A stretch of DNA of 64,000 nt from Vermamoeba vermiformis (taxonomy: Eukaryota): contig JBEWZL010000124.1 in NCBI GenBank assembly GCA_045837725.1, positions 310,001 to 374,000 of the forward strand, given 5' to 3'. Numbering within the stretch: the stretch's first letter is position 1; each line of letters begins with the position of its first letter. The translations under genes were made by a program, and so were the position numbers. Below the pieces are notes generated by a model. It saw only the letters and a list, made by a program, of their open reading frames with translations. It was not told the DNA's origin and ran no database searches. This document shows positions 3,598-63,064 of this stretch, piece after piece.

Positions 3598-5052
3598 TTA
3601 CTTGGCTTGCAGTGTGACTTGACTCATTGCAGCAGTCGTATTATTCACAGTATTATCGGCATTAGCACCAGTTGTTGATGGTTCTGTTGTAGGCGGCAGT
3701 GACACGGCAGCAATAGATGTGAGGGGCTGATTGATGACTTTCTCATCGACACGTGACTTCAGCACTTGGAAGGCTGGCACAACCCAAGCACTGATTTAAA
3801 TGCATATTTAGTATAGTCAGATAGACGAGATATACTATATTATGCAGGATGTACTTACCCACAACTACATTGGAACCCGTCCCATCGATAAGAACCCACT
3901 CGACTCGCGCACTTCGGACACTGGATCTTGCCGTCCAATGAACTCAAATCGCCCATCCACTCCTTCTCTTCAATAAAGTGCGCTGTGCATGCGACTGGCT
4001 CACTCGTGTGCTTACTACAAACGAAGTTAGTCTCGTGTACTCGCTGTTGACACGTGTCACTTACGCTCGTTTGTTCCAGTCAAAAGACTGCTGGCCCTCA
4101 CCAGGCACGTGATCGACCATCTCGGTGTCATCGAACAGTCGTGTTCGGCACACACGGCACGTGTAGTATTTAGTCGGTTCAATCGTCTTTTCAATTTTTT
4201 CTTCATCAGCCAGTGCCGTTGTTTCCGGGGTATTGTTATTAGCCATAGTATTATTGGCGTCGCTATTAGTGGTATTTACAGAAGGTGTTTCAGCGGATGT
4301 GGTTTCAGGATTAGTTTCATTTGGTTTGGCCTCATTATCAGTGGTGGGTGGTGCCGGTGTAGGATTTTGTTTCTTCCACCGCTCGCTTAATTTTTTGTGA
4401 TATTGATTGAGTTGTTTGATGAATCCAGGGTTTGGACAGGCAGGAGGACATTTAGACTTGACAAATTCAAGTGCTTCGTCGACTGTGCATCTCTTTTTAC
4501 GCATGACGTATGCTGTAGCGATGGTAGGTGCGCGTGATACTCCGGCATTGCTAAACCAAAGATCAGATCGCGATCCGTCAAAAAATATTTTCAATGCGTG
4601 ACAATATAAAATTGGATCATTAACAGCATCTAAAGTCTTTGTAATATTTAAAATATTTTTGTAGGTATCAAACGGTCGGTGGAATTTTTCTGCCGTTTTT
4701 CCTTTATTTTCAATCATGCAGATCCCACGAATTTCTCAAAACAGCAGATATAACTACGAAAATATGCATATTATACTTACCAGTGAATTAAAACGCCACC
4801 AATTTCTCTTCCTTCTTCGATAAACGGTGCGCATTTATCAAAATATTTCATAATATTACTATCTTCCGTGTCCAATACGTCCTCGAGGATTGAATACTCA
4901 AAGTTGAATGGGAATGACTCGTCGAAATCACCAACAGCAATAATATGCGTAATGTCGAGCTTGATCAGCATCGGCTCGTTCTTCGAGTGCTTCAGATTTC
5001 CAACGAAGACTTTCGGCCAGACTTCGCAAGGTTGATCTCCGTGTTCTGCCAT
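3598..5052 (-). CDS. DUSP12: Dual-specificity phosphatase of the DUSP12/Yvh1 family with a C-terminal zinc-binding domain
   Basis: Removing intron 4551-4780 gives VLIHCNAGVSR. The C-terminus has CRVCR...GKIQCPKCASRVGSYRWDGFQCSCG..VVPAFQV. Confidence 0.92.
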
Positions 5053-23100: not shown

Positions 23101-26100
23101 ATGGCCACTAAAGAAAGTCCTAAAAGCCCGCGCGAGGCACCGAAGAGTCCTCGTGATGGTCCAAAGAGCCCTAAAGTTGATACTTGTACGATCTGATCAG
23201 TTTATGCGATTGACAACGGTAATTAATTCTATTTTTAGCTGGACCGTGCGCGCCATTATTTCAAGGATATTTAAGCAAAAAAGGAGGCAGCAAAGGAGGC
23301 AGAAGAAATTGGTAAGTAATCACGCAATTAATTATTTTTAATTGTGATCCTTGCTCGTTAATAATCCGCAGTAATCTATAGTAGAGCTTAGTAGTGTAAT
23401 AATATTTTGTCTATTAGGAAGAAGAGATATTTTGTTTTAACAGGGGATGATTTACGATACTATGAAAATTATCAGGTAAATATTTTTTAACGCCCGTGCG
23501 TATAAAATTGTTAATTATACAAAATCATATATATGACCGATACTATAATAATATATAGCCGATTTAGGCTCTTATTATTGAAATTTATTTAACATGACAC
23601 TTTGACATTTTAACGGATCTCGTTTCTGCAATTTCGAGTCACTAATGTTACGATATAGGCATTCATATCAAAACCTACTCAACCAAAAGGTGCAGTAGCA
23701 CTGCGATATTATGACAAGATTTTGGACAGTACCGAAACGAGCAATGACGCGCATCCGTTTTGCTTTGTGTTAGAAGCTGGCGAAAGGTAAAATTATTCTA
23801 TTATTATTTTAATATTTAATACTACTCGTTCATAATAATCCTTTATAATTTCTTCAATACGAAATTACTTCATGAAGTAATTTCCTGCCGCGGTATTAAT
23901 AGTCTCATGATGCATAGGAAGCTGTTTATGAGTTCAGCCGCTAGAATGAGCAAAGGCGAGTGGATAGACGCAATTGCATCCATCGGAGAAATGCACAAAT
24001 TTATGGTCGCGAAGACCGAAAGATCCAGCATTATGTTAGGCACCGTAGAAAATGGATTGATAGAAATCAGCTTTAAATTGCTAGAAAAAGTATCAATAGT
24101 AGTCTCTAATGTATATTCATTCGTAGATGAGGTAAGATAACGCTCGAAACAATAATTGAACATTTTGAATACAAAATCTATTTTTATAATTCGATTCGAA
24201 AGGGTCCGTTAGAACTCTTATATGAAAATAAGTCGTTAATATAACATATTGCATCATTAGGTCAACTCCAAAGACCCTAATGTTAGCAACATTTTGACTG
24301 TAGTCAAAGATCTGGGTCTCAGCACTTGTTTGTCGATGAGAGCCTTCTTGCGCGCAATCAAATTCGTTGGAGAATACAATCTACAAGCATGTCTATTGAA
24401 TGCTGATAAGATCATTGGCATATTAAGGAAGCTAGAAGAAGTGACGCGTACTGCCGTAGAAAAGGCCGCTCAAACTCAAAAAGTCTCATTAATTACAAAT
24501 ATGCTAGTACGTAATATTGATCATTTATATATACGCCACAAGATTGACTGTTTAATTAGGGCGTTAAAACATTGCTTTCAGAAGATCTGAAAAGAATTAC
24601 AAACTTGGCGCCAAGAAATCGAGCGCAATCTACAGACCGTCCATTGCCCAAAAAAGGAAAAGAGAAAGACCCTAATGTCGATAGCGCATTGGACGCACTG
24701 AGCGAGATGGCCTTTGATAACACATTGCAAGGCGGTCAAAACAATCCTTTGTACGGACATGATAGCGCGACCAATTCACCCATGGCAACGCGCAAGAAGA
24801 CCTTGTCGACACTCATTAACCTCGCCAATGCACACGTGGATGTGGCCAATGACACCGTCGAGTCCATGGAGAACACACTAAATCTGAATATGAGTCGTCA
24901 ACTGACCAACACACCGCGGTCACCTGGGCCGAGTCCAATGGCCTCACCGCGCCCGAACAATGGAGTCGTGGAGAACGGAGCGGGCAACAATACCAATGTA
25001 CAACCTGCCGCTGAGAACGGGGAGACCAAACCTGTTGAAGTGGATGGTGTTCCCGAGCCTGTATTCACGCACAGCAATGCCGCATATGGCGTGCAACTAC
25101 AACTAGACGGAACATTAGGTCCCAACAACACCTCTGCAAACACTACAGTTGAGCCAGTTAAGGCGACTACTCCGAGGACCCCACGTGCTCCCGAAAGCGA
25201 CATCAAAGCAGCTGACATCGAGTTATTGAAGCAAGATATTGGACTGCTAAGTCAGTTCTTGACTATTGGAAGTCCATTCGAGCCTAATGACGATGATCCC
25301 ATTGAAATGTTAGAAGAAAATGTCAAGCGAATCAGCATTAACGACGAGATATTAGACGAGGTTGATTTTGACCTCACAAAGCCCAAAGAAACAGCACCTG
25401 AAGTTCCAAAGCCTGTTGAAGAGCCTGTCTCCAATGGACCTGTCGATACTACTCCGGAGTCCAAGCCTGAAGATGATGAAGTCGGTGACAGCTCGTCCTC
25501 ATCAGAAGAATACGTCGAAGAGGAATCAGACGACGATGCTGTCATTAGTGTCATTGCCCCAAAGACACCGCGTGACATTGTACTACCGAGCATCGCGAAG
25601 GAACCAACGCCTGTTACGCAAGCAGCTGCTACCGAGCAACCTGCACCTGAAGAACCTGCGCAACAACCACAAGAACAGCCCTTTCGCAGTGGAGACCTCG
25701 TAAGGGGCGACTCGAGTGAGGTCTCACACACTGCTGCTGTGACGACGCAACAAACACAAGCTGAAACACCTGCCGTGGAGTCACCACCCCGCAGCACTCC
25801 TGTAGAGCAAGGTCCCCTCTCCAGCACTTCACAGAGCTCGCAATCAAGTGAGCGCTCGAGCGCCTCAGCGCCTAGGTCCTCTGAAGTCTCAGCACCCAAA
25901 CCTATTGTCGAGTACAAGGGCAATAACTCCTCGCCTTCCACGCCCAGAGGATTGGCTCAGATTGAAATCCCCAAGGTCCGCACGTCTTCGTTGAGATCTA
26001 AAGGCGATAGAATGCCTGACATTACATTCACAACACCTTCAAAGACTTCAGTTGGTGACGAAGGTCCGCTCTCAAGCACGTACACGCCAAGTGTCAAAGT

Positions 26101-26743
26101 GTCACTCACGACTGCAAACGATAAGCGTGCATCCTTTGCTGAAGAAGAGACAGATACCTTCAGACTGTCAATGACTTACGCGCCAGGTCAAAATCAGCTC
26201 GGTGCTAAGAAGACTGAAGCAAAAAGCTGGCGTCGTTCAACGAGGTTTTCGAGCCGCATCAGTGATCTATCTAACCGACAGCCCGAGGCTCAGACAACCG
26301 CATCTGTTCCATCTGCCAGTACTAGTGTAGAGAACAATACTAATGCCCCAAATAACAATAACAACGCGGACCAGCCCTTGCGACAACCAGCACTCAGCGA
26401 TGTTAGCAACCGAGCCATGAGCAAATCCAGCGGATACTTCATTAGCGTGGTCTATATTAATGGGCTGCACAGGTTGAATGTTGAAACACATCCTATGAGT
26501 CCATATTTGGACATTTTGGAAGAAGGTCGAACGGATGTGTTCATCTCGTTACAACGTGGAATCTACGCGGCTTGGAACAAACGAAAAGCAGCTGATAACC
26601 AAGAACCTCCTAAGGAAAATAATGTTAGTAATAATAATACTAATGACGAGGCTTCAAGTTCTAGCAGCAGCGATGAAAGCCAAAGCCAAAACAGTGGTGA
26701 GCCAAAAGATCCGTTGCATGAAGAAGAAAAGAAAGCAGAATGA
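23101..26743 (+). CDS. PH-domain protein with a helical region and a long Ser/Pro/Glu-rich disordered C-terminus
   Basis: Spliced FQGYLSKKGGSKGGRRNWKKRYFVL..LRYY..PKGAVAL..FCFVL..EWIDAI. Long final exon ~24560-26743. Confidence 0.85.
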
Positions 26744-41520: not shown

Positions 41521-44195
41521 ATGGCCGATAACAACAACAAGCCTGAGGCTCAAGCCAAGCAACAGAAAGCCCCAAAGGAGGCTAAGCCCAAGAAGAAGGG
41601 ATTCAATCTCAACGACTATCCTTTGCCTGAATACGTCCAACACCGTCTTCAAGTCTGGGACGAGGTTAAGAAGAGCCAAGAAGCTGTTAATGCAGGTACG
41701 CATCTAATATTGCATTTAATTGTGGTGCATTATTGAATCTTGGATCCCAGAGCAAAAGAAGCCGATCAAGATTACTTTGCCCGACGGTAGCGTAAAGGAT
41801 GGTGTTGCCTTCGAGACATCTCCTTACGACATTGCTCGTGCTATTAGCAAGAGCTTGGCTGAGTCCTGCGTTGCTGCCAAGGTAAACGTCGATCTGAAAA
41901 TATTAGTAAAACGTTAAATTATCTTTTCATGGTCTAAAATTGCAGCTAAAATATTTGTTAACATTACGCACACGTATAATAATTTTTTGTCGCTAAAATG
42001 TCCAAAAAGTTTTATCGTTTTACTGCTCGCAGTGCATCCACAAATTATTTACTTTAGTCACCACCAAATCATATCAAATATCGTTATTAATATATTAATT
42101 AAATTAAACAGGTCAACGGTGAGGTTCGTGACCTTAACAGACCCTTCGAAGCAGATTCAACTCTTGAACTCCTCAAGTTTGACTCAGAAGACGGCAAACA
42201 CGTAAGCTTTGCAAACTCTATCGTGCATAATATTTATTGAACATCTATACCATTGTTACTGATTGAAAATGATTGAGATCTGTATTATTACGGGTTGACG
42301 CTAATGCACACTATCTTAGGTCTTCTGGCACAGCAGCGCTCACATTTTGGGTCAAGCCCTTGAACGCAAATACAAAGCCAAGTAAGTTGCCTGGTTATAA
42401 CATGAATATGAGCATATATTAACATTTCTCTAGCCTGTGCATTGGTCCTCCAATTGACGACGGTGGTTTCTACTACGATATGGCCAGCGAGCAGTAAGTG
42501 CGATAGTGATGGTGTGGCCAATAACGTGATACTAATCCTCTTTAGACCCGTCGCTCCTGAAGACTACGAAGACATTCAAGGAATCGTCTCTGCTATTATC
42601 GCCGAGAAACAGCCCTTCGAACGTCTTAGCATCCCCAAAGAAAAGGCTATGGAAATGTTCAAATTCAACAAATACAAGCTCGAAATCATCAAGAACAAGG
42701 TCCCCGATGGTGCTAACTGCACTGCCTACCGTTGCGGTCCTTTGATCGATTTGTGCAAGGGCCCTCACTTGCCCAACACTGGTGTCGCCAAGGCCTTCGC
42801 CGTTACCAAGAACTCCAGCGCTTACTGGCTCGGTAACGCCAAGAACGACGCTTTGCAACGCGTCTACGGTATCTCTTTCCCCGATAAGAAGCAACTCGCT
42901 GAGTGGGAAGAGTTCCAACGCGAGGCTGCCAAGCGCGATCACCGTAACATTGGCAAGGCTCAAGAGTTGTTCTTTGTTCACCCCTACTCCCCTGGTAGCT
43001 CTTTCTTCTTGCCCCACGGCACCAAGGTCTACAACAAGCTCGTCGACTTCTTGCGCAAGGAGTACCGCAAGCGTGGCTTCACTGAAGTTATCACGCCCAA
43101 CATGTTCAACAGCGAGTTGTGGCAACAATCAGGACACTGGGCCAAGTACAAGGACAACATGTTCAACCTCAAGGTCGACGAACAAGACTTTGCTCTCAAG
43201 CCCATGAACTGCCCCGGTCACTGCTTGATGTTCGATCACACTTCCCGCTCTTACCGTGACTTGCCCATCAGATTCGCTGACTTTGGTGTCTTGCACCGTA
43301 ATGAGGCTCACGGTGCCTTGACTGGTTTGACTCGTGTTCGCCGCTTCCAACAAGACGATGCTCACATCTTCTGCACCCAAGATCAGGTTCGTAACGGCTA
43401 CATATTGATTAGATCTTCCGATCCCGTACATCTGACCCATGACTTACTTTTATATCCGCATAGATCTCCCAAGAGATTCAAGGTGCTCTTGAGTTCATGA
43501 GCTCTGTCTACGGCATTTTCGGCTTCGAGTTCACCCTCGAATTGTCTACTCGCCCCGAGAACTACCTCGGTGAGTTGGCTGTTTGGGACAAGGCTGAAGC
43601 TGCTTTGAAGGAGGCCCTTGACAAGTTCGGCAAGGGCTGGAAGTTGAACCCTGGTGATGGTGCTTTCTACGGTCCCAAGATCGACATCCACGTCACCGAC
43701 GCCTTGAAGCGTGAGCACCAATGCGCCACTATTCAACTCGACTTCAACTTGCCCGTCCGCTTCGGTTTGAACTACCGCAACAACGACGACAGCATGGAGC
43801 GCCCTGTCATCATTCACCGTGCCATTCTCGGATCTGTCGAGCGATTTATGGCTATTTTGATCGAGCACTGTGCTGGCAAATGGCCTTTCTGGGTTTCTCC
43901 TCGCCAAGCCATCGTCGTCAACGTCTCTGAGAAGTCTTCTGAGTACGCCACTCAATTGCACAAACAATTGTGGAGCGAAGGCTTCGAAGTCGAGATCGAC
44001 ATCACTGACAAGACTTTGCAAAAGAAGATTCGTGAGGCTCAATTGGCTCAGTTCAACTTCATCTTGGTCGTTGGTGAAGAAGAGGCCAAGAACGGCACTG
44101 TCAACGTCAGAACAAGAGACAACGTTGTTCACGGCACTAAGCCGATCGCCGAGCTGATCGCTGAGTTCCACCAACTCGAAGCTGAGCACAAATAA
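41521..44195 (+). CDS. TARS: Threonyl-tRNA synthetase, cytosolic type
   Basis: TGS domain, [48 protein letters not shown] and the anticodon-binding domain. Strong C-ending codon bias. Confidence 0.97.
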
Positions 44196-44362
44196 GATGC
44201 AAGTTGTAGTTCTGGCACGTGACATATTTGCTTTGTAACCGCTGTAGTTGAATGAAGGCACTTCTAGAATTCCATTTTTAGATTTTTTTTTTTGACTGGT
44301 CAAGCTTGCAACAATTTTCCATTCTTTTAGTCTCAAACCCATTGCAAACACACTAACACAAC

Positions 44363-45953
44363 ATGTCTTATCCTCCCCAACAAGGTGGTTACCCTCCTCA
44401 AGGTCAACCTGGCCAACCTGGCTATCCTCCTCAAGGACAACCCGGCCAACCCGGTCAACCCGGATATCCTCCTCAACAAGGCGGCTACCCTCCTCAACAA
44501 GGTGGCTATCCTCCTCAAGGTCAGCCTGGCCAACCTGGCTACCCTCCTCAACAAGGCGGCTATCCTCCTCAAGGTAAGCATCTGGTGGCTTGAAAGGCGA
44601 ATTTCAATTTACGAACTTGCCAATCTGCTTAGGTCAACCCGGTCAACCTGGCCAACCCGGCTATCCTCCTCAACAAGGTGGTTATCCCCCTCAACAGGGT
44701 GGCTATCCTCCCCAACAAGGTAAGTGAAGAGCTTACTCACAACGAAATTCATTTGTTGCTGATATTTTAAATCTGCCGAAAAAATTTTCAATGCCTTAGA
44801 GATTATGATCATCATGTTACCTGCGTAAACATGTGTTTGAAAAACACGATCATGCACCGCCAGATTTTTTCCAAAATCTCTGAAGCGAAAATGAAAGTAA
44901 ATCTGATTTTTTATGAAAGGTGGCTATCCCCCTCAACAAGGCGGCTATCCTCCTCAAGGTCAACCTGGTCAAGCCGGTCAACCCTGGTACGGCCAATACA
45001 ATCAAGGAATTGATGCTCAAAAGATGCAAACCTTGAGAGTACGTATCAATCATTTACACAAATCTGGAATTCCTCGTTACTGAGTGACTAATAATTCTTA
45101 TTTTAATTATAGGCTTGGTTCGATAGCGTCGATAAGTAAGTTTATCAATCTTTACACTGCCCTTCTCGATCAGTAAATAACGGCTAATTTTCCGTCAGGG
45201 ATCGCTCCGGTCAAGTTAGCGCTGTTGAATTGGCTCAAGTTCAATTCGGTGGCAAGCCTTTGGGTGCCGAGACCGCCGCCAAGTTCATTAAGGTCTACGA
45301 TCGGTAAGTTTTCGCTATGTTTCAACTTCGCGGATTCGACCGTATTTGTTAACCCTTGTGCGTATTCAGTGACAACACCAAGAGCATCGACTTCAACGAG
45401 TACGTTGCTTTGCACCAAATGCTCGAGAAGTTGAGCAATGCTTTCTTCTCTGCCGATGCTGATCGCAGCGGTACTCTCGATGCACGCGAGATCTACACCG
45501 CCATCCAACAAGCTGGTTTCCAAGGCCTCTCTCCTCAAACTATTGACGCTTTCGGTCGCAAGATCCAAGCCCAAACCAAGCCTTTCCCTCAACCCGGTCA
45601 ACCTGGCGGCTATCCTCCTCAACAACCTGGCTATCCTGGCCAACCTGGTTATCCTCCTCAACAGCCCGGTCAACCTGGCTACCCTCCTCAAGGACAACCT
45701 CAACAAGGCGGTACGTATCTTATGCTGCTAGAACGGAGACTAGACTGTAGTTGTTGCATTGGATCGCTAACATGTGCGCGCATTAGGTTATCCTCCAGTC
45801 ACTGTTGCCATCACTTTCCAACAATTCCTCGACATCTGCGCGCAATTGGCGTTGATTAAGAGCATTTTTGACCTCGCTGACACTGACAGAGACGGTCGTG
45901 TTACTTTCACTTGGGACCAATTGGCTTTCTCCACTGTCGATTTGAACGCTTGA
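44363..45953 (+). CDS. Penta-EF-hand protein (peflin/ALG-2/sorcin-like) with GYPPQ repeats
   Basis: N-terminal GYPPQ repeats, then [37 protein letters not shown] and [13 protein letters not shown] loops. Confidence 0.88.
44366..44987 (+). repeat. Coding tandem repeats encoding (G/PG)YPPQQG and QPGQPG
   Basis: Units such as ggctatcctcctcaacaag recur across three exons. Confidence 0.9.
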
Positions 45954-46270: not shown

Positions 46271-49200
46271 TTAAATTTCCCACTTTTCTACCTGTGCCCG
46301 CATATCAATTTGCGTTTGTTGTACGCGCAGGTAATTGAACACGCAAACAGGACACGCGAGATTCATGACGCGCTGTTGATATTCACCGAGCAACAGCTTC
46401 GTGGTGACTGGCACTGCGATGGGCAACTGTTCCGCACGTGATTTAAACTGCGGCAAGATTCTGTCTTGGTAATCATCGCGCGCAAAGTAATGGCCGCACG
46501 TGAATGCAACGTGCTATATGAAGGGTTGATTAGAAACAGTGGACTAACAAAGGAAAGTGAGCGGATGTATTTACGGTAGGATCTTCCGGATTGACATTAG
46601 TAGGGCCTTTAATAGGCGCTAACATAGTAGACAAGGCGATCTTATCTTTAACATCGACGTCTTTGTTCAAATTGTTGCGGATCGAGGCCAACAATTTCTC
46701 TTCCGGAACTTTCTCGCTTTGTTCTATTAATAGGTTAGATTTTGTAGCGAACAGATGATGCAATCTTACCTTTGCGGAAGTTTTCGTCCATAATTTGGGT
46801 ATATGAGGTGACTACAGCAAAATAAATGTCTTGCGAGAGCGTGACGCATAACGGAGACTTGTCAGATCCAGCTGGAACTTCTTGAAGGAGTAACAGCTCA
46901 CCTAATAGTGGCGCAAGTACTCTTATATTGTCCTTAATATGTTCTTCAAGCGGTTCTAACGGCAATTTTCTTTCGTGCCAGAATTGTAAAATCTACGAAG
47001 CAGATCCGTTAGTTTTGCTCGAACAAAATTCAGTTGACGTACTTGATATAAGAGCTCTTCACGGTTAGGGACATTGGCAAGGTCCTTCACGATGAAAGTT
47101 AAGCAGTCCGAGCAGGGACAAGGTCTCATCAGTGCGGTCCTCATCGTTGGCTTGGAACATGGTCTCGTAAGACTTGAGCGTGCAGTACACCGCTAACAGC
47201 CAGCGACGCGTTTGAAGTGCGACAATAGATGCCGCTGAAAAGTTGTTCCACTCGAGGGCTTTGTCGAGCACAAGGTGCGGACGATACGGTACTGTCGCGT
47301 GTTGACCAGGGCCAGTCGATGCAGCCAAGGCATTGGAGCTGTTCAGCGTGCCAGCTTGTGGTGCGTCCCAACCTCGCAGTGTAGCTTCAATCATGGCTGG
47401 ACCATAGAGCTCCTCATCTGTCATGCGATTAGTACAATAATACATTAAATATCACTACTTCGCTTACCGTGATCAAAGGCCAAATGTTTCTTCTGCGTGC
47501 CATTGACTTCAGCGCCGTTGACTTCAGTTCCATTGGTCTTTTTGTCGTTCGTATTTGAATCCCCGCCAAACACACGGTAATTCACCACTTCGTTCAGCGA
47601 ATCAACAAGACGTGGTGCCCACTCGTCGTTAAGACTATTGTGTCCTAATTGGCCGAAGCGACCTGATCCCCAGGTGTAGACATGACCTCGTTCTGTGCAG
47701 TCATAAGCACGTGTAATGAGGTTAAATATGTCATGACATACCAGTCAGTACTACGTTGAACTCATCACCGCAGCAGATCTGTTTGATTCGTTTGCCTTTG
47801 AGCGCTAAGATCGGTGTGGGCACTTCACTGAACATTTCAGCAATTGAGCGCTGTCGCTCATTGGACTTTTGCGATTTGTTCGCCGAGAAGCTTTTGCCCC
47901 ACATGTATACTTTGCCTTGCGCTAGTGTTTGCATAGATTAGTGCCGCTGACTTAAGAGCAGTTAAGAGGCCTTACCGCTGACAACAACAGTGTGGAAGTG
48001 GCCTGTGGCAATCAACGAGGCCTGTTTGCCCATCAAGAACTCGATCAACTTGGGCTCGAGTTGGTCTTCGTAGCGCTCTTGTTCCACTTTTGACTTCTTC
48101 ATTGCACGGCCCCACAGGTAGATGTTACCCAAATCTGGTCATATTAGCGAGAGGTCTTGCAACTAAATGAGACTAGACTTACCATTGACAGCGACAGTGT
48201 GGAATGAGCCACACGCCACGGACGTGAAGTGCGTGCCCACGAGTGCTGAGAGCAGGCGAGGGATCAACAAGTCCTCGCTGTCACCGTGCCCCAATTGACC
48301 GTACAGTCCGCTGCCCCACGTGTACACATTGCCGTTGTCCAACAGCAGTGCGTTGTGACTGAAGCCGCACGAGACTGCTTTCCACTGCGCCACTTTGCTG
48401 CCCTCAAGGAATGCAATCAGATGTGGCGCGTGTTTGTCATCACGATCGCCGAGGCCAAGCTGACCGTGACTACCCGCACCAAACACCCACAGTCCTTTGT
48501 CTGTCAAAATCATGCTGTGCGACCAGCCACACGCGAGGGACTTGACGCGCACTTGACCGAGTTCAGTGATTGCTGTCGGCACTGTTCGTGGCTCTGTGTC
48601 ACCGAGACCCAGTTGACCATGGTCATTTGCACCCCACGCATACACCGTGCCACTCTCTGTGTGGCTATTGTTAGTGACCTGATGATGAAATAGTTGCAAT
48701 GGTTGACATACCATCCACGGCAATAGTGTGTTCACCACCGCATGCAATGTGCGTGATGTTGACAGATGACAGCGAGGACACCTTTTGCGGCGTGAATCTA
48801 AATGCAAGTGTTAGAGCCAAAGTCAATATTATTGCATAGCTTGCGTACTTGTGCTCTGAGTGGCCGAGTCCCAGTTGTGCCGAATTATTCCGCCCCCAAA
48901 TATAGACTTGACCGTCCTCTGTGATGACTGCCGTGTGACCCCAGCCACATGTCACTTTTGACACTTTTTTCTCGTTGAAAGACTGCACCATTTGATATTG
49001 CACTGATTTGGCTGGCAAAAACAGTTAGCTTAATTAGGCAAATGAGAAGGGGTTGTTTTTACCTTTTTTGGCTTGAGGCTCAGAGCGCTGTTGTCTGCGG
49101 TAGTTCAACACGAATAAAGTGGCTAAAAATAGCTCGACGTATTCTTCTTTAGTCGCAGCGTGCTCCTCTTCAACAGTCTCTTTGCTCATGTACGAGCTGT

Positions 49201-52820: not shown

Positions 52821-55721
52821 ATGAGCGAGCCAGCACACGTCCCTGCTATCAATATAGACCTCGTACATGATTTAAATAATAATTTAAATGTAAATAACTC
52901 ACCTTTGCCGCCGATCGAGGAAGAACCAGTGACACCAACAGATCTCAAAAAGACAGGCGAGATCCGCGCACCTGAACTGCATGAAGAGGTCACACCCGCA
53001 CATGCCTCGGGTATGCGCGCTATTAAGTCCGAAGAAGCACTATTCAAGTCTCCGCTGAGTACGCCAAGCACGCCAGGCACATCTGGCACTACATCTCCCA
53101 CGCACGGCTTGTCGAGCAGCACGAGCAGCATACCGCGCAAGACTAGGAAGAGAACGAATAGCTTGCCTGATGAACGACTATCACCGAGCAATACTAAGCC
53201 TGTGCCTGCGATCAAAACTGTTGCGTTCAAAGGGATCAAAGAAGGTAAGGTTTATTTAATTGTTACAATAGAGACACGCATGAATATGATATAGATAGAA
53301 TATATTTATTGCCATGATCAATCTAATTAATATTTTAAATTTATTTTTCCTTGACCGCCAAATTATTCGTGCCACGTCAGCGATCTGCATCGTTATTAAG
53401 ACCTACTATCGATATAAAATAGATCATATTATTTTTCTAAATAATATTAATGACAAATGACTACCGAACTCGATCCAGTAAGCAACTTTGGCTGACATCC
53501 GGACTTACCATCTATTCTATTAACAGAATCTGATGGCACTAGCTCACCTAGACGATCACCGCGATTAAGTCCGACGATTAATAGGCGCAAAGGATTTATG
53601 GACTGGGCTGTTGAAGAGGTCACTGGAAGTCAAATGGATGGCAAACAGAACCAGCTCAGCAAGACTAGAGACGATGTATATAACTTTATTAGAGTGCCTT
53701 GGCAATTAGAAAAGGTAATGAGTCATATTAAATGTGATACTATCCTCGCGTAACGGTTTTTTTGTAACGGGATCGGATCTTGCTTACAAATTGCAAATGA
53801 AGTGGGCTAATATGTTATTATCGTTCATTATAGGCATGCACATTTGGATTCTTTGCGTGCATGGACGCATTTCTGTTCTATTTCACGTTCTTCCCGATCC
53901 GCATCCTGCTCGCAATATTTTTATTCTTGAAGAAGATCGTACAGCCTAGCAAGTAAGATATGCCGATTAAATAATACAATATCATTTAATTATTTCATTT
54001 TGAACGTAAAATAATTGTATGGTTCTTCGTGTAATCGATTTTTGTTTTGACGTGGATCAGATCCGCGTCATGACGGATGTTTAACTAACTGAAAATCTAT
54101 TATTATAGGACTGAACTAACACCAGGTCATATATACGACTTGCTGCGCTTTGTTATTGGTTGTTTTTCGTGCTGGATCTTGTCGTTCATCGACGCTTCAA
54201 TTTTGTATCATTTTATCAAGGGCCAAGCTGTTATTAAGCTCTACGTCATATTCAACGCGATAGAGGTACGTATTTTAGCATATTTAAGTCGCTCAATATC
54301 ATCCCACAATATAATTCTTGGAGTTTTGTTCGAACAAATTTTTTCTTTGTGGATCCGATGTAGTTTGAACTATTTGAATATTATTATCGTAGTATTCATA
54401 TTCAACATGATGTGTGTCGTGTGTCCTGACCTCTGAATCAATCATGTAGTCAGCATTTACACGAGCTGAATTTGAATTTTTATTTTTTTTTCTTTGCCCT
54501 AATTTGGCTATTTTTTCTTAACCATGCAATAAACTGAGCTAATCTAATCTTTGCAGATATTCGACAAGCTATGCTGCGCATTCGGTCAAGACGTGTTTGA
54601 CTCGTTGTTTTTGATTGTGAGGCCCGAAAAAGACTCGCACAAGACACGGCTCAGACCAATCACGCACTTTGTGGTGTCGCTGGTATACACTGGTATACGA
54701 CGCTATGCCCATATTTGGCAATCTAATCACTGACAATCTTTGCAGCTATTCACTCCGTGCTGATCTACGTGCGCGTGATCACGATGAATGTCGCGGTGAA
54801 TTCGTACAACAACGCGCTGTTGACGCTGTTGGTGTCGAACAACTTCATCGAGGTCAAGTCGAGTGTGTTCAAGAACTACCGAGAGGAGAACTTGTTTCAA
54901 GTCACCTGCAGCGGTACGTCCTCCGTACTTAGCGTTAAAATGATATCGTTGGATCCGAGACATTAGGCTCATAGTTCGAGAGGCCTATTAGTTTGTATTA
55001 TCAATACTAATGATGTCGTTTATGTCCCTTTAGACGTGCTCGAGCGATTTCAGCTGTTGGCGTACCTGTTCATCGTCATCTTTCACAACATGCACGACCT
55101 CGAGTGGAACATATCCATGAATGTGTTTCTCATGAACGTGTGGGTGGTACGTCTGTCATGGATGTGCACCATGCATGTTCATATTTAACTGTTGCTATTC
55201 AGGTTGGCATAGTGTTGGGCAGTGAGTTCGTGGTGGATTGGATCAAGCACTGTTTCATTCTCAAATTCAACAATATGAGTGCTGATATCTACGCCAAGTT
55301 CTCAATGATCCTCAGATCTGACGTCCTTGATGCTCGCAACGAGGTACTTAACGAGCTAATTCTTTAACAATGCTTCACAAACTGACTTGTTCAAGGGCTT
55401 TTTGGATCCGTCCTCGAATGTGGCACGACGCATTGGCTTTATTCCACTGCCCCTAGCATGCTTAGTACTGCGCGTATTCTTCCACATCTTCCCACTATCA
55501 GGCTGGCTCGGAGTAGTACTGCTATTGGTGTTCTGTTTGGTGATTGCTGCGCTCAAAGTGCTCATTCGTATCTTGTTGCTCGGCAGTTGTCTCACCAAGT
55601 TTGAAAAGCTCAAGGTAATGCTGGAAATACTCGCAACACCTATTTCATACGACTAACCTTTTGTGCTTAGGCTGAGAGCAAAAAACTGTCACAGATCAGC
55701 ACACCGTACCAAAAGGTCTAG
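52821..55721 (+). CDS. TAPT1: TAPT1/Emp65 (DUF747) membrane protein
   Basis: VPWQLEK, LYHFIKGQAVIKLYVIFN, DKLCCAFGQD, NVAVNSYNNALLTLLVSNNFIEVKSSVFK, VDWIKHCFILKFN and RRIGFIPLPL motifs. Confidence 0.93.
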
Positions 55722-55824
55722 CGAGGCTATTATTGGCCTATTTGTTCATCTTTCGTTGTATCATTGTAAATTACTGTAAATAAGTTTCAAACCAAATTCG
55801 TGTTCATTATTACAACCAGGTACA

Positions 55825-58800
55825 TTATTTTCTTATGTATACATCTTGAACACCATACACTGATATTTTTTCCAACGTTTCAAACGACGGCTTGTCAAGG
55901 TGTTCAGCTGAGTTAGGGAAACAAATACGCAAATGCGTCAACTTCTTTTTGCAGCCAATGCAGTGTTTAGTCTAAGCATTGGTGAGAGGTGTTAATTACT
56001 GTGAAATTTTATGAATTTGTTTGTGATTGATTACCTTCAAGCTCTCGACGAACTTAGCATCCAAGTTGGCGTGTTCGTTACCGCAATCCAGATTGAACAA
56101 CGTGAGAATGCTCTGGTAGTTGTAGAACTCACCGCAAGGCACGTGATACAAACACTTGCTGTCGAGTGGTTGGCGACACGCGTCCACGACTGTTGCTGAC
56201 CACTCACCGGTTTGACCTAGCGATGCGTTAGCTACACGCCCTTCAAGCTCATTGCACGCCATTAGCAGGACTTACTCTTTGACAGCCTGGTGTTCGATGG
56301 ATTGAGTGGCACGAGCTCTTCCACTCTGAATGTCTCGCGGTCCAAACTGCAGTAGCTGAGTGTGACCGTTGATTCTTTGTCGCCAATGTGTCCGCACGGC
56401 AACAGTTGTGGATTGCGCATGGTTTGCATCAGAATCAAATCTTGCCAGCCAAGTGCCTTGGTGCCCTTTTTGCGTGTGAAATATACTGGGAGATTGTTAG
56501 TGACACTAAAAATAATAAAAGTTCTTGTGGGCAACCATACCAGTTTTCAGCCTAGGACATCGAGAACCAACGTCAGTCAGCCAATTGTTGTCCAACACTT
56601 CACTCGTGTCAACAACACTCAAAACCTGATTAAAAGACGTTAGAACATACTCCTCGAGCATGGATGGAACTCACTTCTAGTGCTGGGATCTTTTCTTTTT
56701 TAGAGAGCAACGAGAAAACTTTTTCACCGCTCTTTTTGAGCTCGTAGCAGTGGTCTAAATACAACTCACGGAGATTGGTGAGACGATAAAGTGACAGCAG
56801 TGAGCGAGCACTGGTCTGTGTGCCTGTCAAATTCAAAATCTCGACCTGCACACGCGTTAGCAAGATCTGAAATGGCGCGACATTGATTGACCTACTTCGT
56901 TCTCGCGATGAATGGGGTGTCCTTTGCCATTAGTGCCGTTGAAAATTGCACGCATTGAAGACTCAGTGTTTGACAGGTCAATCTCTGAGAACACAATGCG
57001 AACTTTGTGCAGTTGATAAGCAAACGAGAGAATTCGATCGAGAATTTTCACCACCAAGTCCTGTGCACCAACCGTGAGTTGACACATAAATAACGAATGC
57101 ACAAGCGTACCTTGGCCTTTTCGCGTTGTTGTTCGGGTGTGCCTTCAATTTTGTTGGGTTGTAAGAAGGGCCAGTTCGCGAATGAAATGCGCATCTTGGC
57201 ACGCACTTCCAGCTTGAGATCAGCACTCGCTGAGAGCGGCGAATCTGAGTGCGGTGACGAGCCTTTAACAGGACTGCTCGTGGGTGTTGTGTTGCTGCTG
57301 GGCACTGACAACGAGCCCTCGCCGTCCTCGTTGTTGTTGCTCGCACTGACGCGGTCTTCAGGCCCGAGGTCCACGGACTTGATCTCAAGCACGGGCAACA
57401 CGACTTTAGACTCCTCAGTGCCTGTCCATCGCGCAACTTCGCGCAACAAAGGCGCTGAAATGTCACGCTCTAGCCTCCTTCGACCATTAGCAGTCTCGAA
57501 CTCTTTGAGCGCTGAGTCCAAGTCGAGTGACTGTGATGTGTGGAGGGGCGAGCGGCTTTGTTTGGGACTGCCGCGGTGTTGATTGTCGGAGTTGAGCACA
57601 GCGTCAGTACTCTGCACGAGTGGTGGCTGCGGAATAACTTTTTGTGGGCTTGGTGCAGGTTTAATTCCACTGCTGGTGGCTCGCTTTGACCTAGTGCTGC
57701 CTGTAGTGGGAGGGTTGGTGGTTGGCGTGTTGGGGACTATTGGAATTGGTTCACTTTTGTGAGCTGGTTCAGGGGCATTGCTGTTGGTGTTGCTAGTATT
57801 GGTGCTAGTATTGTTGCTGGTGTTGTTGCCAGTGTTGTTGTTCGTCCTGTTCGTGCTGGGACTGTCAGTGCTCGAAGTACTTGAGCGCAAGAGATCCTCC
57901 GTCGAGCCATGCGACGAGTTGCTCCGCGCCAATTGCAACGCATGCACTATTTGCGTGTATTCGGGGAACAACTTCAAGAAGGCGGGACTGCGCGAGTTAA
58001 AGGCCAAAGATTCGCGCGCATACATTCGCTTCTGCGTGTCATCGGTGTCAATCGTCCCGATCAGTTCTTCGTCGTCAAGCTACAAGTAGCGCCCACATTA
58101 GCATCATATAATTTACTTACTAGTGTGTGTCTAATACGTACCAGTGCGAATAGTATTCCATATAGCAAACTATTGAAACAAAGTACTGTCAGATCCACGC
58201 CGGATCGCGAGAACAATTCTCAATTGTGACTCACCTTGAGAGTGTCCAATTTGGATTCCAGTGGTCGGGGTGGACTGAAGATATTCAATAGAGCCGTTAG
58301 TTTCGCGAAGATAACGCAGGAGTTTTCAGGATCGATGAAAAAATGAAGAAAAAATATCCGCTTACAGTCACTCATGCTGAGGCACAAACGAGTATCAGTT
58401 TTAAAGCGACCACTCGGAGTAATCATGTATATGCCTAAGTAATGATTAGCACACAATCGCGATTGTTATAACAGAATTCCAATTTTTTGGGACTAATGGA
58501 CAAAAATAGCTTGCGATCGGCTTACTTGGAGGTTTGTTCGGGTATTCTGGCGGGAATTTAATAAGGCCATGATATATACCTCCTGTTTAGTATTGAATGA
58601 ATGAGTCGAGGGCAGGAAGAAGCGCATTTTGATTTTTAAGGTTTGCGGATCTAACGTGTAAGGATTGTTTGCTCCGCAGTTATAATTTATATAAACATTA
58701 TTTATCCTTATTAAATGACCATACGATCGTGCCGTAAGAGGTTATTAGGTCTTGAAGAGTAAATTTTAAAATCGATTTTGCATAGTCAATTACCTTTGAA

Positions 58801-59058
58801 CGGAGTACCATCGGGGCCCAAGATTAAAAAATGCCAAGTAAAAATATCATCATTGTCATATCTCGCTAAATATAAATTTAATTATTTAGCAGTGCGTAAG
58901 TGATGAAAATTGAATTAAAATATTTAACGGTCCCAATGCTGTTACTCACCCACTATGCCTTGCAATGGCTCTTTAAATATACTAAGTGCTTCTTTGGCGA
59001 GTCGTTTTTGAGCTTCTTTCGATATTCCGTTATCTTTTGCTGGCTGATTTGACTCCAT
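55825..59058 (-). CDS. Ubc6/UBE2J-type E2 fused to LRRs and two degenerate RING/U-box-like domains
   Basis: [49 protein letters not shown]. The frame continues through GT-AG introns into LxxLxL repeats and the PCGH and PCGE..CIGC modules. Confidence 0.82.
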
Positions 59059-59358
59059 TTTCAATTTGTGACGGTATTATTTATCCTCATCAAAGGTCTA
59101 ATATATTTACAAATTTATGCTGATGAGGTCGTCCAAATCGTGTTCCTATTGTTCTGATCCTTGAAAACGTCAACCCTTCGTTGAACAAATCACGTGCGCG
59201 AGATACAGTATTATGGACGTGCGGTCCCAAAGGTAGACAAGGTAGTCATAGGAACAGGACTGTTAACAAAGATCTATAAAGACTGCTTGGTCTTGACTGG
59301 CGAATTACCCCAGAAGGATCGGAGATCGGATAGTTTATTCGCTTAAAGGACGTAAGTC

Positions 59359-61262
59359 TTATTGCTTGCTCCACATCTGCTTATGGTCATTGATTATCTT
59401 AACATAACTTTGCGAGCCGGCTCGTAGCACTCGTTTAAGATCGGGATCGTTCGCGAAATCTATTTTGGCAAGCCCGAAACATTGATTATATGATTCGACC
59501 CACTCTGCAAAGCATTGAGTCAGTAACGATGCATATGAAAGTAAGGTTCGTACCAAAATTGTCCATGAGAGACCAGTAATAAAATCCTCGCACGTCCACG
59601 CCTTCTTTGATCGCACGTGACACAGCGTAGAGGTATCTAATAAGGCAGTGTTAAATATGGGCTCGATCGATAGAACTATGAATTACCGCTTGATCCAAGT
59701 TTCGCGCAGTACGTCTTTGCTGTCAGGAGCACCTACAATACATGTCAGGTGTGGTGCGAGATGACAAGCCAACCAATACGTACCGTTCTCAGTGATTATA
59801 ATGGGCTTGCCTAGCTCTTTGACGCGGTGCAATGCTCTGTAGATGCCTTCAGCATAGATGGCGTATTCGAACTCCGTAACCATTTCACCTTAAACACCTG
59901 TGAGCCTGGCACCCGTTCAATGTGTCAAAACCAAATTACCTTTCTTTGCAGGACACAGATCAATAGGCTTGTTCGAGACAATAGGTGACACAGCATAGTA
60001 GTGCGAGTAGTAATTGAGACCGAAAGAAGTCATTCGCGCCCTTAGCCTGCTCATTGACGAAGCGATTGTTCACAGCAAAGGGAATGTTGATCTGAAACAC
60101 ACCCGTCTTGAAGAACTGAATGAGATGTTAGTCACGTTGTTCACATCATCGTGCACGTACTCCCAGCACACTCTCATTCATGAATGCGTCGAAGTACTTG
60201 GCGACCAAACGATTGATGGGATTCCACCAGTTGTAGGGGTCAAATTGAGTCAAACTGTGCTGCTATTAGTCACTTATCTCGCAATGAGGTCTTACTTACT
60301 TGTGCACAATACCCACTCGAGCATTGTTGCCTCCAGGAAGGGCTTTAATCATGCGATAGACTTGCACATGAGCTTCGCACAGATTCTTCAATACTTCACT
60401 CGCTAGCTGCATGTTGCGTACTCCAGGCGGGAATCGACCTTCAATGTATCCAACTCTGGCGCGATGTCAATAGCTGTCAGCTTGTAAGTTACAGTGATCT
60501 TACCCTGTGTAGACTGTAGGCTCGTTAATGGTGCACCACCACTTGACTTTGGATTGATACTCTTTGAATACTACCTGCGTAACGTTATTGTTAGAGAATT
60601 GGCGCGCAATATGACGTAGCCCATCTTACTTCGCAAAACTTGACGAAGAATTCAATGTTGCTAGTTTTTTCCCAACTGCCCATGTCATTGAACCAGATTG
60701 GATGCGTGAAATGGTGGAAGGTAACCATGGGTTCGATATTAGCTTCGATCAATGCGTCTATCATTTCATGATAATGTTTCAAAACTTCGTGATCCACCTC
60801 GCCTGTCCAATAGGATTAGTCGGGATTATAAAATTGCTGCATTATTGTATTACCTCTCTTGGGCTCGATCTTGCTCCACTCGACACTGAATCTGTAGCTG
60901 GTGAGTCCAATTTCTTTCATTAATGCAATGTCTTCTTTGTACAGATTCCACGAGTCGCAAGCACGGCCACTCAATGCCTTCGTCTTGCCCTTAGTTTCCC
61001 ACACGTGCCAATTATTGTTTGTGCAATTTCCCTCGACTAAACGAGGATCAGAAAATTGGAAAAAATTTTTATAACTTACTTTGATGCGCTGCGGTGGCTG
61101 CTCCCCACATAAAATTGGGTGGAAATCTAGATTATTAAGTTAATTTGATTTTTTTTCTTTTGGCGTGGTCAGATCCGTATCAAACAATAATCCTTACTTG
61201 ACATCATCTGTATTGATAGTGTCCCAATCCCATCGAATCTCTTGAAAATGATCGATTTCCAT
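59359..61262 (-). CDS. Glycoside hydrolase family 1 beta-glucosidase
   Basis: FMWGAATAAHQIEG, YRFSVEWSKIEP, TFHHFTHP, TINEP (acid/base), ITENG (nucleophile) and WSLMDNFEW. Confidence 0.93.
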
Positions 61263-61447: not shown

Positions 61448-63064
61448 TTAGACTTTGCTGTAGTTCATCTTGGACTCGAGTTTCTTGCTCTCTTGCACCT
61501 TTCTGACGGCCTTCATAAAGTCTTCTTGCAGCACGTAGTCTCGTTCAGCACGAATAGCGGCCATACCAGCTTCTGTGACTACGTTACGAAGATCTGCTCC
61601 GTTAAAGCCATCGGCCAACTTGCAAATAGCTTCATAGTCTAGTGCAGCTAAGTTAATACTTCTGCGTACTTAGTAACATCGCGTTAATACTTACCAATTT
61701 CACCTTGCTTAGTGATCTTTGCGGAGTGAATCTTCAACACATCCACACGACCTTGCTCGTTGGGCAAGGGAATTTCAATCTTTCTGTCCAAACGACCAGG
61801 TCGCAACAAAGCAGGATCCAAGACGTCTAGGTAGAACGTTAGGTATTGTTACAAGGATACGAGCAATAATACAAGCTCACATACCAGGTCTGTTAGTAGC
61901 CATGATAACTTTCACTTTGCCAAGCTGGTCGAAACCGTCCATTTGATTCAAGAGCTCCATCAATGTACGTTGAATTTCACGATCGGCAGATGTACCTTCT
62001 GAGAAACGTCGACCACCGATAGCGTCGATTTCGTCCATAAAAATTACACAAGGCTGGTGTTCACGAGCATAAGCAAACATTTCACGAATGACACGTGCAC
62101 TTTCACCAATATATTTGTCGACAATAGCTGAGGACACGACCTTCAAGAAGTTGGCGTCGAGATTGCAAGCGACGGCACGAGCCAAGAGGGTCTTGCCAGT
62201 ACCAGGAGGACCATAGAGCAGAACACCCTTGGGAGGCTTAATACCGACACGTTGGAACAGTTCAGGATTTGTGAGGGGCAATTCAATAACCTGCAGCACA
62301 AAGGTGAGTCGCACAAGTACAAAAATGTCACGTGCAAAACAGTACCTCTCTGAGTTCTCTAATTTGATCGCTGAGACCACCGACTTCGTTGTAAGCGACT
62401 TGACCAGGGTCTTCAGTTAACATGTTGAATACCACTAAAGGTAACATTTTGGTTAGGAACAAAAATTCTCGAGACTCGCTGAAAATGACTTACAAGGATC
62501 AACTTCACGAGGCAATGATCGCATAATTGTGAGAGTGGTCATATCCAAGGCAACACGGGTACCTTGCTTCAGGCCGTCTTTGTTCACTTTGTTTCTGCAT
62601 CCAACAACATAGCGAGGGCCACTAGAAGCCTTCACAATAACTAATATAATATAAGAAATTTGTTAAGAATATTTAAACGTGATATTTGTGGTCGAAAGTA
62701 GAATTTGTTAAATTGCAAGAGAAAAAATTGCTGATGCAGATTGAAAAATTTTTCAGATTCAAACTTACATTTCTCCTCATCCAATTTTTTTAATACTTCT
62801 CCGACAATTTGTCCAACACTTTGAAGAGCCTTCAAATCATCTTCTGATTTATCATAGTCTCCTTTCAATTTTCTCATCTCCTCTCGGACTGAAAAATTAC
62901 TTTGTTAGCAACAAAACAACGCCATAATTTGATTAATAATTTAGCAGTATTATTTAGTAATACTTACGGTTTTTAACTTTAGTTTCATATTCTCTGTGTT
63001 GAAGGAGCTTGCTGCGATAATTTTCAAGAGCCTTTTGCTTCTTTTGTTCTTCTGTTTCAGCCAT
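61448..63064 (-). CDS. PSMC6: 26S proteasome AAA-ATPase Rpt4/PSMC6
   Basis: [62 protein letters not shown]. Confidence 0.97.

Follow-up and report, generated by a model that had tools for sequence, protein, structure and literature searches.

The window analyzed here is a 64,000-nucleotide (nt) stretch of the Vermamoeba vermiformis genome (NCBI GenBank assembly GCA_045837725.1, contig JBEWZL010000124.1, positions 310,001 to 374,000 of the forward strand), and the subject of this report is a gene on its minus strand at positions 55825 to 59058. The gene encodes a protein of 767 amino acids (aa) that is probably, at a rough probability of 0.55, a soluble ubiquitin-conjugating enzyme (E2) as well as a ubiquitin ligase (E3) in one chain. 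Its parts are a Ubc6-type E2 domain, a tether of about 240 aa, a leucine-rich repeat (LRR) domain that resembles those of Skp2 and FBXL proteins and has no F-box, and two degenerate RING-like units with a single putative zinc site each. The underlying observation, which comprises the gene structure, the continuity of the transcript, the identities of the domains and their conservation, is confirmed. An earlier reading of the same DNA, made from the sequence alone and without database searches, had suggested a possible self-contained enzyme of E2, substrate receptor and E3. The architecture proposed in that reading stands, and the step from architecture to enzyme is still conjectural.

Gene structure and transcript continuity

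All fold results, and the Pfam and PDB matches of the E2 domain, were obtained with three orthologous stand-ins (P0001, P0161 and P0162) for the window's spliced protein. A search with the 69-aa exon that carries the first RING-like unit (unit 1) retrieves P0001, a 757-aa single open reading frame (ORF) of a public contig whose source name is 'E2 J2'. P0001, P0159 and P0160 are single ORFs of 757-758 aa that are 90% identical to the window's gene model, while P0161 (456 aa) and P0162 (235 aa), two fragments that belong to this 90% cluster, share 92% identity with the window. Identity between the window and P0001 is 95% in the E2 domain (aa 1-175), 77% in the linker, 98% in the cap and LRR, 93% in unit 1 and 89% in the second RING-like unit (unit 2). 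Every putative ligand residue of the stand-ins is identical in the window.

Splicing out 12 introns with GT..AG ends and lengths of 49-211 nt yields a single frame of 767 codons, which begins with an ATG at 59058-59056 and whose stop codon ends at 55825. The uninterrupted spliced frame described in the sequence-only reading is thereby reproduced with exactly the same two ends. The features of the gene, all on the minus strand and in the coordinates of the window, are as follows.

59059-59140, minus: 5' untranslated stretch, seen in intron-free contigs that reach 59140 (X2 record 8) and 59138 (X3 record 12)
55825-59058, minus: whole coding region, 13 exons, 767 aa plus stop, sequence spliced by script
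59058-58950, 58865-58794, 58582-58526, 58434-58366, 58274-58235, 58169-58142 and 58079-57111, minus: exons 1-7
57060-56896, 56845-56675, 56625-56541, 56485-56276, 56216-56035 and 55971-55825, minus: exons 8-13
57930-59019, minus: Ubc6/UBE2J-type UBC domain with C-terminal helical extension, aa 14-175, exons 1-7, placed from the Pfam and PDB matches of P0001
58382-58384, minus: codon for Cys97 of the active site, within [19 protein letters not shown], aligned with the Cys column of canonical E2s
57213-57929, minus: disordered linker (aa 176-414) enriched in S, T, P and N and contained in exon 7 (969 nt), supported by composition, identity and predicted local distance difference test (pLDDT)
56542-57212, minus: aa 415-588, a cap made of a short beta-sheet and a long helix, then about five LRR rungs, from the AlphaFold2 model of P0161 and Foldseek
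56295-56541, minus: degenerate RING unit 1, aa 589-652, putative ligands C619, H621, C634 and D637, Arg638 at the linchpin position
55909-56214, minus: degenerate RING unit 2, aa 660-740, putative ligands H683, C686, C723 and C726, interrupted by the last intron (56034-55972)
55828-55908, minus: aa 741-767, a C-terminal tail whose helix (F..L....Y) is conserved, from conserved columns of alignments A1 and A2 and helix 220-227 of the P0162 model

Continuity of the transcript is evaluated over positions 55300-59700 by comparison with contigs (Logan) of the public runs X1, X2 and X3 and with the raw RNA run X24. All 12 introns are absent from the contigs of at least two of the three runs X1, X2 and X3, and 10 of them are absent in all three; the intron between 55971 and 56035 is skipped only in X1 and X3, and the one between 56214 and 56274 only in X2 and X3. 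The joint 58431/58523 is reported as displaced by 3 nt with non-canonical ends. A synonymous AGC>AGT change in the relatives would account for this displacement, and the P0001 protein reads PPSIYM at the joint, as does the window. Likeness to the window is mostly 95-99% for these X1, X2 and X3 contigs, which therefore derive from close relatives or strains. Overlapping intron-free pieces tile the gene, with 57542-59140 in record 8 of X2, 57165-57684 in record 4 of X1, 56274-57542 in record 7 of X2 and 56035-57329 in record 9 of X3. The raw RNA run X24 contributes 45 reads only, at 90-95% likeness, of which one crosses the joint 56623/56673; these are too few and too distant to define a transcript. 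The sequence-only reading had named transcript junctions as a check on its model, and the intron-free contigs bridge all 12 joints, in support of one transcript rather than two genes.

The differences between the window and the contigs also bear on the coding frame. Among the 35 exonic differences listed, 32 are synonymous and 3 are nonsynonymous, the latter near the N-terminus and in unit 1; the further 65 lie outside this count. Every listed difference in the linker exon is synonymous. A linker repeat at 57794-57831 (minus), rich in Asn and Thr, carries in-frame deletions in the related strains, of 24 nt in X1 and of 36 nt in X2 and X3. Given the synonymous differences and the in-frame insertions and deletions (indels), the coding frame is therefore under purifying selection along its whole length and is not a chance ORF.

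Two points weigh against the single-chain model at this level. No listed contig piece extends from one end of the gene to the other, and X1, X2 and X3, the source of the intron-free contigs, are not recorded as RNA in a listing of 24 runs. Both would fit an artefact of the gene model, in which an E2 gene and an adjacent LRR-RING gene, or a pseudogene, have been joined by optimistic splicing. Such an artefact would have to contend with a joining exon of 969 nt that is open and shows only synonymous listed differences and in-frame indels, with the overlapping intron-free contigs that tile the region, and with the single ORFs of P0001, P0159 and P0160 and of transcripts from Rhizamoeba, Arcella and Echinamoeba, in which the parts occur in the same order. 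It is hardly credible as an explanation, and two separate genes within 55825-59058 are very unlikely.

E2 domain and linker

The N-terminal part of the protein is an E2 domain of the Ubc6/UBE2J type. P0001 matches the Pfam family UQ_con with an E-value of 4e-17 (62.6 bits, cut-off 27), and its residues 14-175 match Ubc6 (9en5_A, E 1.1e-49) and UBE2J2 (2f4w_A, E 4e-48) in the PDB. In an alignment with 14 canonical UBE2J-like E2s, Cys97 falls in their Cys column, and the active-site string is identical to that of canonical members. Cys97 lies within [11 protein letters not shown], with an RLCLSMSD active site, and TPSGRF at aa 85-90 takes the place of HPN. The window protein thus has the two marks of the Ubc6/UBE2J family in this domain, which are a Cys in an RLCLS context and TP(S/N)GRF instead of HPN.

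The third mark of the family, a C-terminal tail anchor, is missing. No transmembrane-like segment was found in a scan of the whole protein, in which the 19-residue Kyte-Doolittle means peak at 1.27, within the E2 core, and the same scan found no hydrophobic segment after aa 135. With a maximum of this size in this place, the tail anchor that localizes Ubc6 and UBE2J enzymes is therefore absent. A Ubc6/UBE2J-type E2 with its active Cys and the lack of a transmembrane anchor had both been claimed from the sequence, and both claims are borne out, the first by the PDB matches of P0001 and the position of Cys97 and the second by the hydropathy scan. Judged by these sequence features, the E2 of the window looks active and the protein looks soluble.

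The E2 domain is followed by a linker of 239 aa that contains 45 S, 26 T, 25 P and 22 N, in keeping with the long S/T/N/P-rich linker described in the sequence-only reading. The linker is the least conserved region of the protein (77% identity to P0001 versus 89-98% in the folded parts) and is predicted to be disordered where it has been modelled, with pLDDT values below 50 for residues 56-102 of P0161. A partly conserved helix lies near aa 312-345.

Cap and LRR domain

The AlphaFold2 model of P0161, built with 55 sequences, has a pLDDT of 85.8 and a predicted template modelling score (pTM) of 0.84. It consists of a small sheet, a long helix, about five LRR rungs and then the two RING-like units. 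The rungs carry the strings VRIVFSEID, ILNL, ELYL, VLSV and VYFT. In a Foldseek comparison, the LRR of P0161 matches Skp2 (1fs2_A) with a probability of 1.00 over 147 columns at a root-mean-square deviation (rmsd) of 3.8, and FBXL2, KDM2A/B and TIR1 also match. Pfam LRR_4 is found only below its cut-off (E 0.018 on single exons), and a search of PDB sequences with profile A2 returns FBXL5 at E 0.012 and the TRIM21 RING at E 0.94, values that are too weak to be used alone. The LRR claim itself is upheld, as the LRR strings quoted for it are present in the protein and the modelled LRR resembles those of Skp2 and FBXL proteins.

No F-box family is present among the Pfam matches of P0001 at E ≤ 1, and what precedes the LRR is a small sheet and a single long helix. 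Since no F-box is detected, nothing points to recruitment of Skp1 or a cullin. The LRR would be the putative substrate-binding part of the protein.

RING-like units

The two units carry the motifs WQDLILMQ...LLPCGH...YCSLDRE at 56447-56337 (unit 1) and LYHVPCG...KHCIGCKK at 56145-55951 (unit 2), and all motifs that the sequence-only reading had cited occur in the protein. The model of P0162, based on a 62-sequence alignment, has a pLDDT of 93.9 and a pTM of 0.89, and the leading Foldseek matches of this 235-aa model are all RING or U-box proteins. The top structural match is the fused RNF4 RING dimer 4ap4_A, with a Z of 9.3 and an rmsd of 3.2 over 109 residues (model residues 67-206). This chain ranks first both among the 996 chains aligned by Foldseek and among 48,161 PDB representatives searched without Foldseek. 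The next matches are 7dvq_9 (Z 8.6) and 8i0r_9, with Z of 8.3-8.6, then 8c6j_CN (Z 8.5) and the RING1B-BMI1 fusion 6wi7 (Z 6.4). On unit 1 (model residues 68-121), individual RINGs and U-boxes reach Z of 4-4.8, among them TRAF6, Prp19, CHIP, E4B and a CTLH subunit, and in the search without Foldseek the RINGs of Ring1b, TRIM25, Nse1 and Slx1 match unit 2 (model residues 132-215) with Z of 2.9-3.6. From their entry titles, the chains 7dvq_9, 8i0r_9 and 7qtt_u are taken to be PPIL2, and 8c6j_CN and 9fmd_NO are taken to be NOSIP. A tandem U-box at the N-terminus of PPIL2 is described in the accessible text of PMC10208982 and is likened to an active RING dimer in that of PMC13061254. In the predicted structure, the two units of the amoeba protein are packed as an intramolecular RING 'dimer'.

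Conservation of the putative zinc ligands was counted over the 62 rows of alignment A3. In unit 1, the first Cys is conserved in 55/55 sequences, the His in 55/56 and the second Cys in 57/57, and the fourth position is Cys or Asp in 57/58 (34 Cys, 23 Asp). The CSLDR of some relatives alternates at this position with CPLCR, CPICR or CSFCR in others, as is expected of a metal ligand position. The residue that follows the fourth ligand, which is the linchpin position, is Arg or Lys in 46 of 57 sequences, and Ile or Val occupies the place of the Ile in 'CPI' in 42 of 53. In unit 2, the His is conserved in 62/62 sequences and the three Cys in 62/62, 61/62 and 61/61; the residue after the last Cys is variable, so that this unit has no conserved linchpin. 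No Cys pair before unit 1 was found in the alignments. Unit 1 follows the SP-RING/Rtf2-type pattern, in which a single zinc site of the form C-x-H...C-x2-C/D is kept and the other site is replaced. The conserved set of Cys and His residues argues for zinc, which would set the units apart from the zinc-free U-box.

Based on these alignments, each unit has one four-ligand site of a degenerate SP-RING or Rtf2-type pattern with putative zinc. An Arg after the last ligand clamps the ubiquitin-charged E2 (E2~Ub) in RING E3s, and BMI1 and BARD1 serve as structural partners in heterodimeric RINGs. By its sequence, unit 1 looks like a unit that retains the features of an E2~Ub-activating RING, and unit 2 has the appearance of a structural partner.

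Matches to Pfam profiles are scattered over the RING clan. At E ≤ 0.01, the 62 members include 12 that match the Rtf2 RING, 4 that match zf-RING_UBOX, 2 each for zf-Nse, U-box, zf-C3HC4_3 and Prok-RING_4, and 1 for zf-RING_2. Most RING-clan matches are below the curated cut-offs, and the Rtf2 matches are all below the cut-off of 27.4 where scores are displayed. Two relatives pass, namely P0016 for U-box (21.7 bits, cut-off 21.4) and P0062 for zf-Nse (28.1 bits, cut-off 27).

Several of these results count against the assignment of the units as RINGs. Each unit has four conserved ligands, not eight, and neither is a canonical RING with two cross-braced sites. P0162, the sequence closest to the window, matches no Pfam RING model at E ≤ 0.01, and for single exons of the window zf-RING_UBOX reaches only E 0.058, below the cut-off. 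The Foldseek E-values of the 235-aa model are all above 1e-3, and the leading Z of 9.3 exceeds only by a little the 7-8 often seen for models that lack a clear match. In addition, structure prediction was based on fragments from the orthologue cluster, which are 92% identical to the window, rather than on the window protein itself. As the Z values are moderately above background, the case rests jointly on the uniformity of the matches, the ligand pattern and the profile matches of the relatives.

The four-ligand sites, the absence of a RING-clan match at this threshold for P0162 and the middling Z values would also suit a protein in which the two units are non-ligase zinc modules, structural or binding in role and RING-like in fold, and the whole is a soluble Ubc6-type E2 with an LRR targeting domain. 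RING-like folds without E3 activity exist. This explanation is improbable, as the linchpin Arg or Lys and the Ile or Val position are largely kept, two relatives score above the curated U-box and zf-Nse cut-offs, and, taken as a pair, the units superpose on active RING dimers. The reading of the module as the E3 part of the chain is therefore preferred. Two degenerate RING/U-box-like units had been claimed from the sequence, and the ligand pattern and predicted fold support them; modelling and a Foldseek search had been suggested as the check, in which the C-terminal module folds confidently as an LRR followed by two RING-like units.

Relatives in amoebae and Chlamydiota

A profile search of 1.84 billion representatives returns 46 proteins at E ≤ 1e-30. 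The profile included the E2 domain, so that larger match counts take in ordinary E2s. Named family members come from four Tubulinea amoebae, which are Rhizamoeba saxonica, Arcella intermedia, Amoeba proteus and Echinamoeba exundans. They make it probable that the window, with its nuclear gene, is likewise from an amoeba of the Tubulinea. Full-length members in the transcriptomes of four amoeba genera share the order of E2-like domain, linker, LRR and two units, and in the transcripts of Rhizamoeba, Arcella and Echinamoeba a single ORF has this order. Matches in a protein atlas all score about 0.80 and serve as leads only.

The relatives differ from the window in the state of the E2 domain, and the difference speaks against a self-sufficient enzyme across the family. 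The catalytic column has no Cys in four of the seven other E2-bearing relatives that were aligned (P0016, P0019 from Rhizamoeba, P0020 and P0021). It also has none, as judged by eye, in P0167 (Arcella) and P0183 (Echinamoeba). In P0012, P0007 and P0009, a Cys lies 1-2 positions off and the HP..WNP segment is missing. Among the family members compared, only the window and the P0001 cluster keep the canonical active site. As most relatives are without the catalytic Cys, the conserved job of the C-terminal module is therefore independent of an active E2 in cis. The loss weighs against an 'all-in-one enzyme' for the family as a whole and has no bearing on the activity of this member. In a tree of the E2 domains, the branches of the pseudo-E2s measure 2.8-7 substitutions per site and that of the window and P0001 measures 0.8. 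Because the pseudo-E2 branches are so long, the tree neither shows nor excludes a single origin of the fusion.

A homologue without an E2 domain is encoded in a metagenome-assembled genome (MAG) of the Chlamydiota. This protein, P0102 (444 aa), has the LRR and both units, and it matches profile A1, which was built without it, at E 6.6e-19. Its gene lies at L001:3001-4335 between rpsB-tsf and a UMP-kinase-like gene, a bacterial chromosomal setting, and a locus search with P0102 returned its own MAG only. P0102 is possibly an effector of a symbiont, with ancestry in common with the amoeba module. Ubiquitin-related expansions in Chlamydiae, as set out in the accessible text of PMC4209131, comprise families with an N-terminal RING or U-box and an LRR; their order is opposite to that of P0102, in which the LRR precedes the units.

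The loss of the catalytic Cys on long branches and the existence of the module without an E2 in a Chlamydiota genome would both be accommodated if the RING-like pair were a real E3 that works with a separate E2 in trans. The N-terminal domain would then be an accessory, either as a ubiquitin-binding or regulatory (pseudo-)E2, as an autoinhibitor on unit 1 or at most as a priming E2 beside an elongating one. Precedents of both kinds appear in the accessible portions of two sources: in FANCL, a RING is accompanied by an N-terminal E2-like fold whose binding of ubiquitin is non-covalent (PMC4543658), and Ubc6 depends on Ubc7 for chain extension (PMC9527308). For the window protein a partner in trans is nevertheless unlikely. 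The Ubc6 active-site segment is intact and the domain is 95% conserved between the window and its close orthologues, with synonymous listed differences in the E2 core and the adjoining exon, apart from the three near the N-terminus and in unit 1, which argues that catalysis has been kept, and an active E2 tethered beside a RING-like module is most simply the partner of that module.

Proposed mechanism

For the favored single-chain E2-E3, we infer docking of the E2 on the RING module, E3 activity and a role of the LRR toward substrates. The ubiquitin-activating enzyme (E1) would charge Cys97, and the tether would let the charged E2 dock on unit 1, either in cis or on a second molecule. The LRR would present a bound protein, and the ubiquitin would be discharged onto this LRR-held target. 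The product would most likely be a first ubiquitin, which another E2 may extend, since Ubc6 and UBE2J2 act as priming enzymes and modify Ser and Thr too. In the accessible text of PMC9527308, Ubc6 and UBE2J2 have no HPN, favor Ser and Thr in addition to Lys and chiefly attach the first ubiquitin, and chain extension after Ubc6 requires Ubc7. A complex prediction for the E2 domain of P0001 (aa 1-175) with P0162 gave a score of 0.00, with alignments unused and the fold of the partner uncertain, and it counts neither for nor against binding.

Comparison with known systems

Ubc6, UBE2J1 and UBE2J2 are tail-anchored E2s of endoplasmic reticulum (ER)-associated degradation (ERAD) and belong to the same catalytic family, with TPSGRF for HPN and the RLCLSMSD active site. 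In contrast to these enzymes, the window protein is without a C-terminal anchor and carries instead an extension of about 590 aa with the linker, the LRR and the two RING-like units. No RING-type module is present in UBE2O or BIRC6, and the UBC domains of these two are those of other E2 families, whereas the window fuses a RING-like pair and an LRR to a UBE2J-type E2. Neither protein is among the 60 PDB sequence matches listed for P0001, of which Ubc6 and UBE2J2 are the best. According to the accessible text of PMC13061254, UBE2O and BIRC6 are natural hybrids that, as here, combine a UBC domain with substrate-selecting or ligase functions in one polypeptide. An engineered gp78RING-Ube2g2 chimera is a highly processive E2-E3, as reported in the accessible text of PMC10630674. 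It is akin to the window protein in that a RING is covalently tethered to an ERAD E2, and it differs in being man-made, in having a single canonical RING and no substrate-binding domain, and in using a Ubc7-type E2.

The C-terminal parts have separate parallels. Fused or intramolecular pairs such as the RNF4 dimer, the PPIL2 tandem U-box, NOSIP, LubX and RING1B-BMI1 are of the kind on which the two units superpose. The identity to these pairs is only 12-20%, the window units have one four-ligand site each, and the pairs carry no fused E2 or LRR. SP-RING and Rtf2-type proteins (Nse2/Mms21, PIAS and Rtf2) share the single-zinc C-x-H...C-x2-C/D pattern of unit 1; they are SUMO ligases or replication factors with Ubc9 or others as partners, whereas the E2 fused in the window is a ubiquitin E2. 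FBXL receptors (Skp2, FBXL2 and KDM2A/B) are alike in the LRR fold and in their short Cys-containing repeats. Unlike them, the window protein has no F-box detected at E ≤ 1, and its ligase part is apparently built in. FANCL, which combines an E2-like fold, a UBC-RWD domain and a RING, is a precedent for an inactive E2-like domain that accompanies a RING, as in the Cys-less relatives (accessible text of PMC4543658 and PMC7273913); no sequence relation to FANCL was found, and the E2 of the window is active-looking.

Neither a natural E2-RING fusion nor this architecture was found in the openly accessible literature, which yielded only UBE2O, BIRC6 and engineered chimeras, older subscription surveys of E2 architectures being outside its scope. 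The accessible text of PMC11354881 has nothing that bears on it. The sequence-only reading had not recognized the architecture either, in agreement with this result. The comparison suggests an E2/E3 hybrid of new architecture, the precedents having no RING-type module or LRR fused to an E2, and an earlier description is possible.

Neighboring genes

In the convergent neighbor at 55014-55656 (plus strand), two exon ORFs have matches to the membrane protein family DUF747 of eukaryotes at E 4e-15 and 8e-9, and its joint 55341/55394 is spliced in X24, X2 and X3. The upstream neighbor at 59359-59889 lies on the minus strand, as does the gene described here, and its joint 59504/59554 is spliced in X1, X2 and X3. 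Its ORFs were considered as a GH1 glucosidase, an assignment that was dropped, the two ORF pieces having no Pfam match at E ≤ 0.001. Ordinary eukaryotic nuclear genes elsewhere in the window encode a dual-specificity phosphatase (4061-4735), a DEAD-box helicase with a KH domain (14469-16214), a threonyl-tRNA-synthetase-like protein (42412-43500), RCC1 repeats (48163-48810) and an AAA ATPase (61877-62416). Pfam matching at E ≤ 0.001 gave nothing for the long open frames at 24560-26743 (plus, 727 aa) and 43398-44603 (minus, 401 aa).

Significance

To our knowledge, an E2 and a RING E3 are almost always separate proteins, and the selection and activation of E2s by RINGs have been studied with engineered fusions. 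A broader reading of the results is offered tentatively, at less than even odds. It holds that the gene may encode an active E2 covalently fused to a RING-type E3 of its own and to a substrate receptor. This would be the first such fusion to occur naturally, and it would mark LRR-bound cytosolic targets with E1 and ubiquitin as the only additions, possibly on Ser or Thr in the manner of Ubc6. The fusion would be an invention shared across the Tubulinea, with repeated decay to pseudo-E2s, and the module would have been exchanged with amoeba-dwelling Chlamydiota.

If the favored single-chain E2-E3 is correct, one protein may carry out steps that normally need a separate E2 and E3. It would then give mechanistic and structural studies a minimal ubiquitination machine that is ready to use, and offer a natural experiment on the effect of tethering on E2 specificity. 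It would also be a Ubc6-type enzyme at work off the ER membrane. The relatives form a series in which an active E2 turns into a pseudo-E2 within one scaffold, and the Chlamydiota homologue hints that symbionts of amoebae use the same ligase module.

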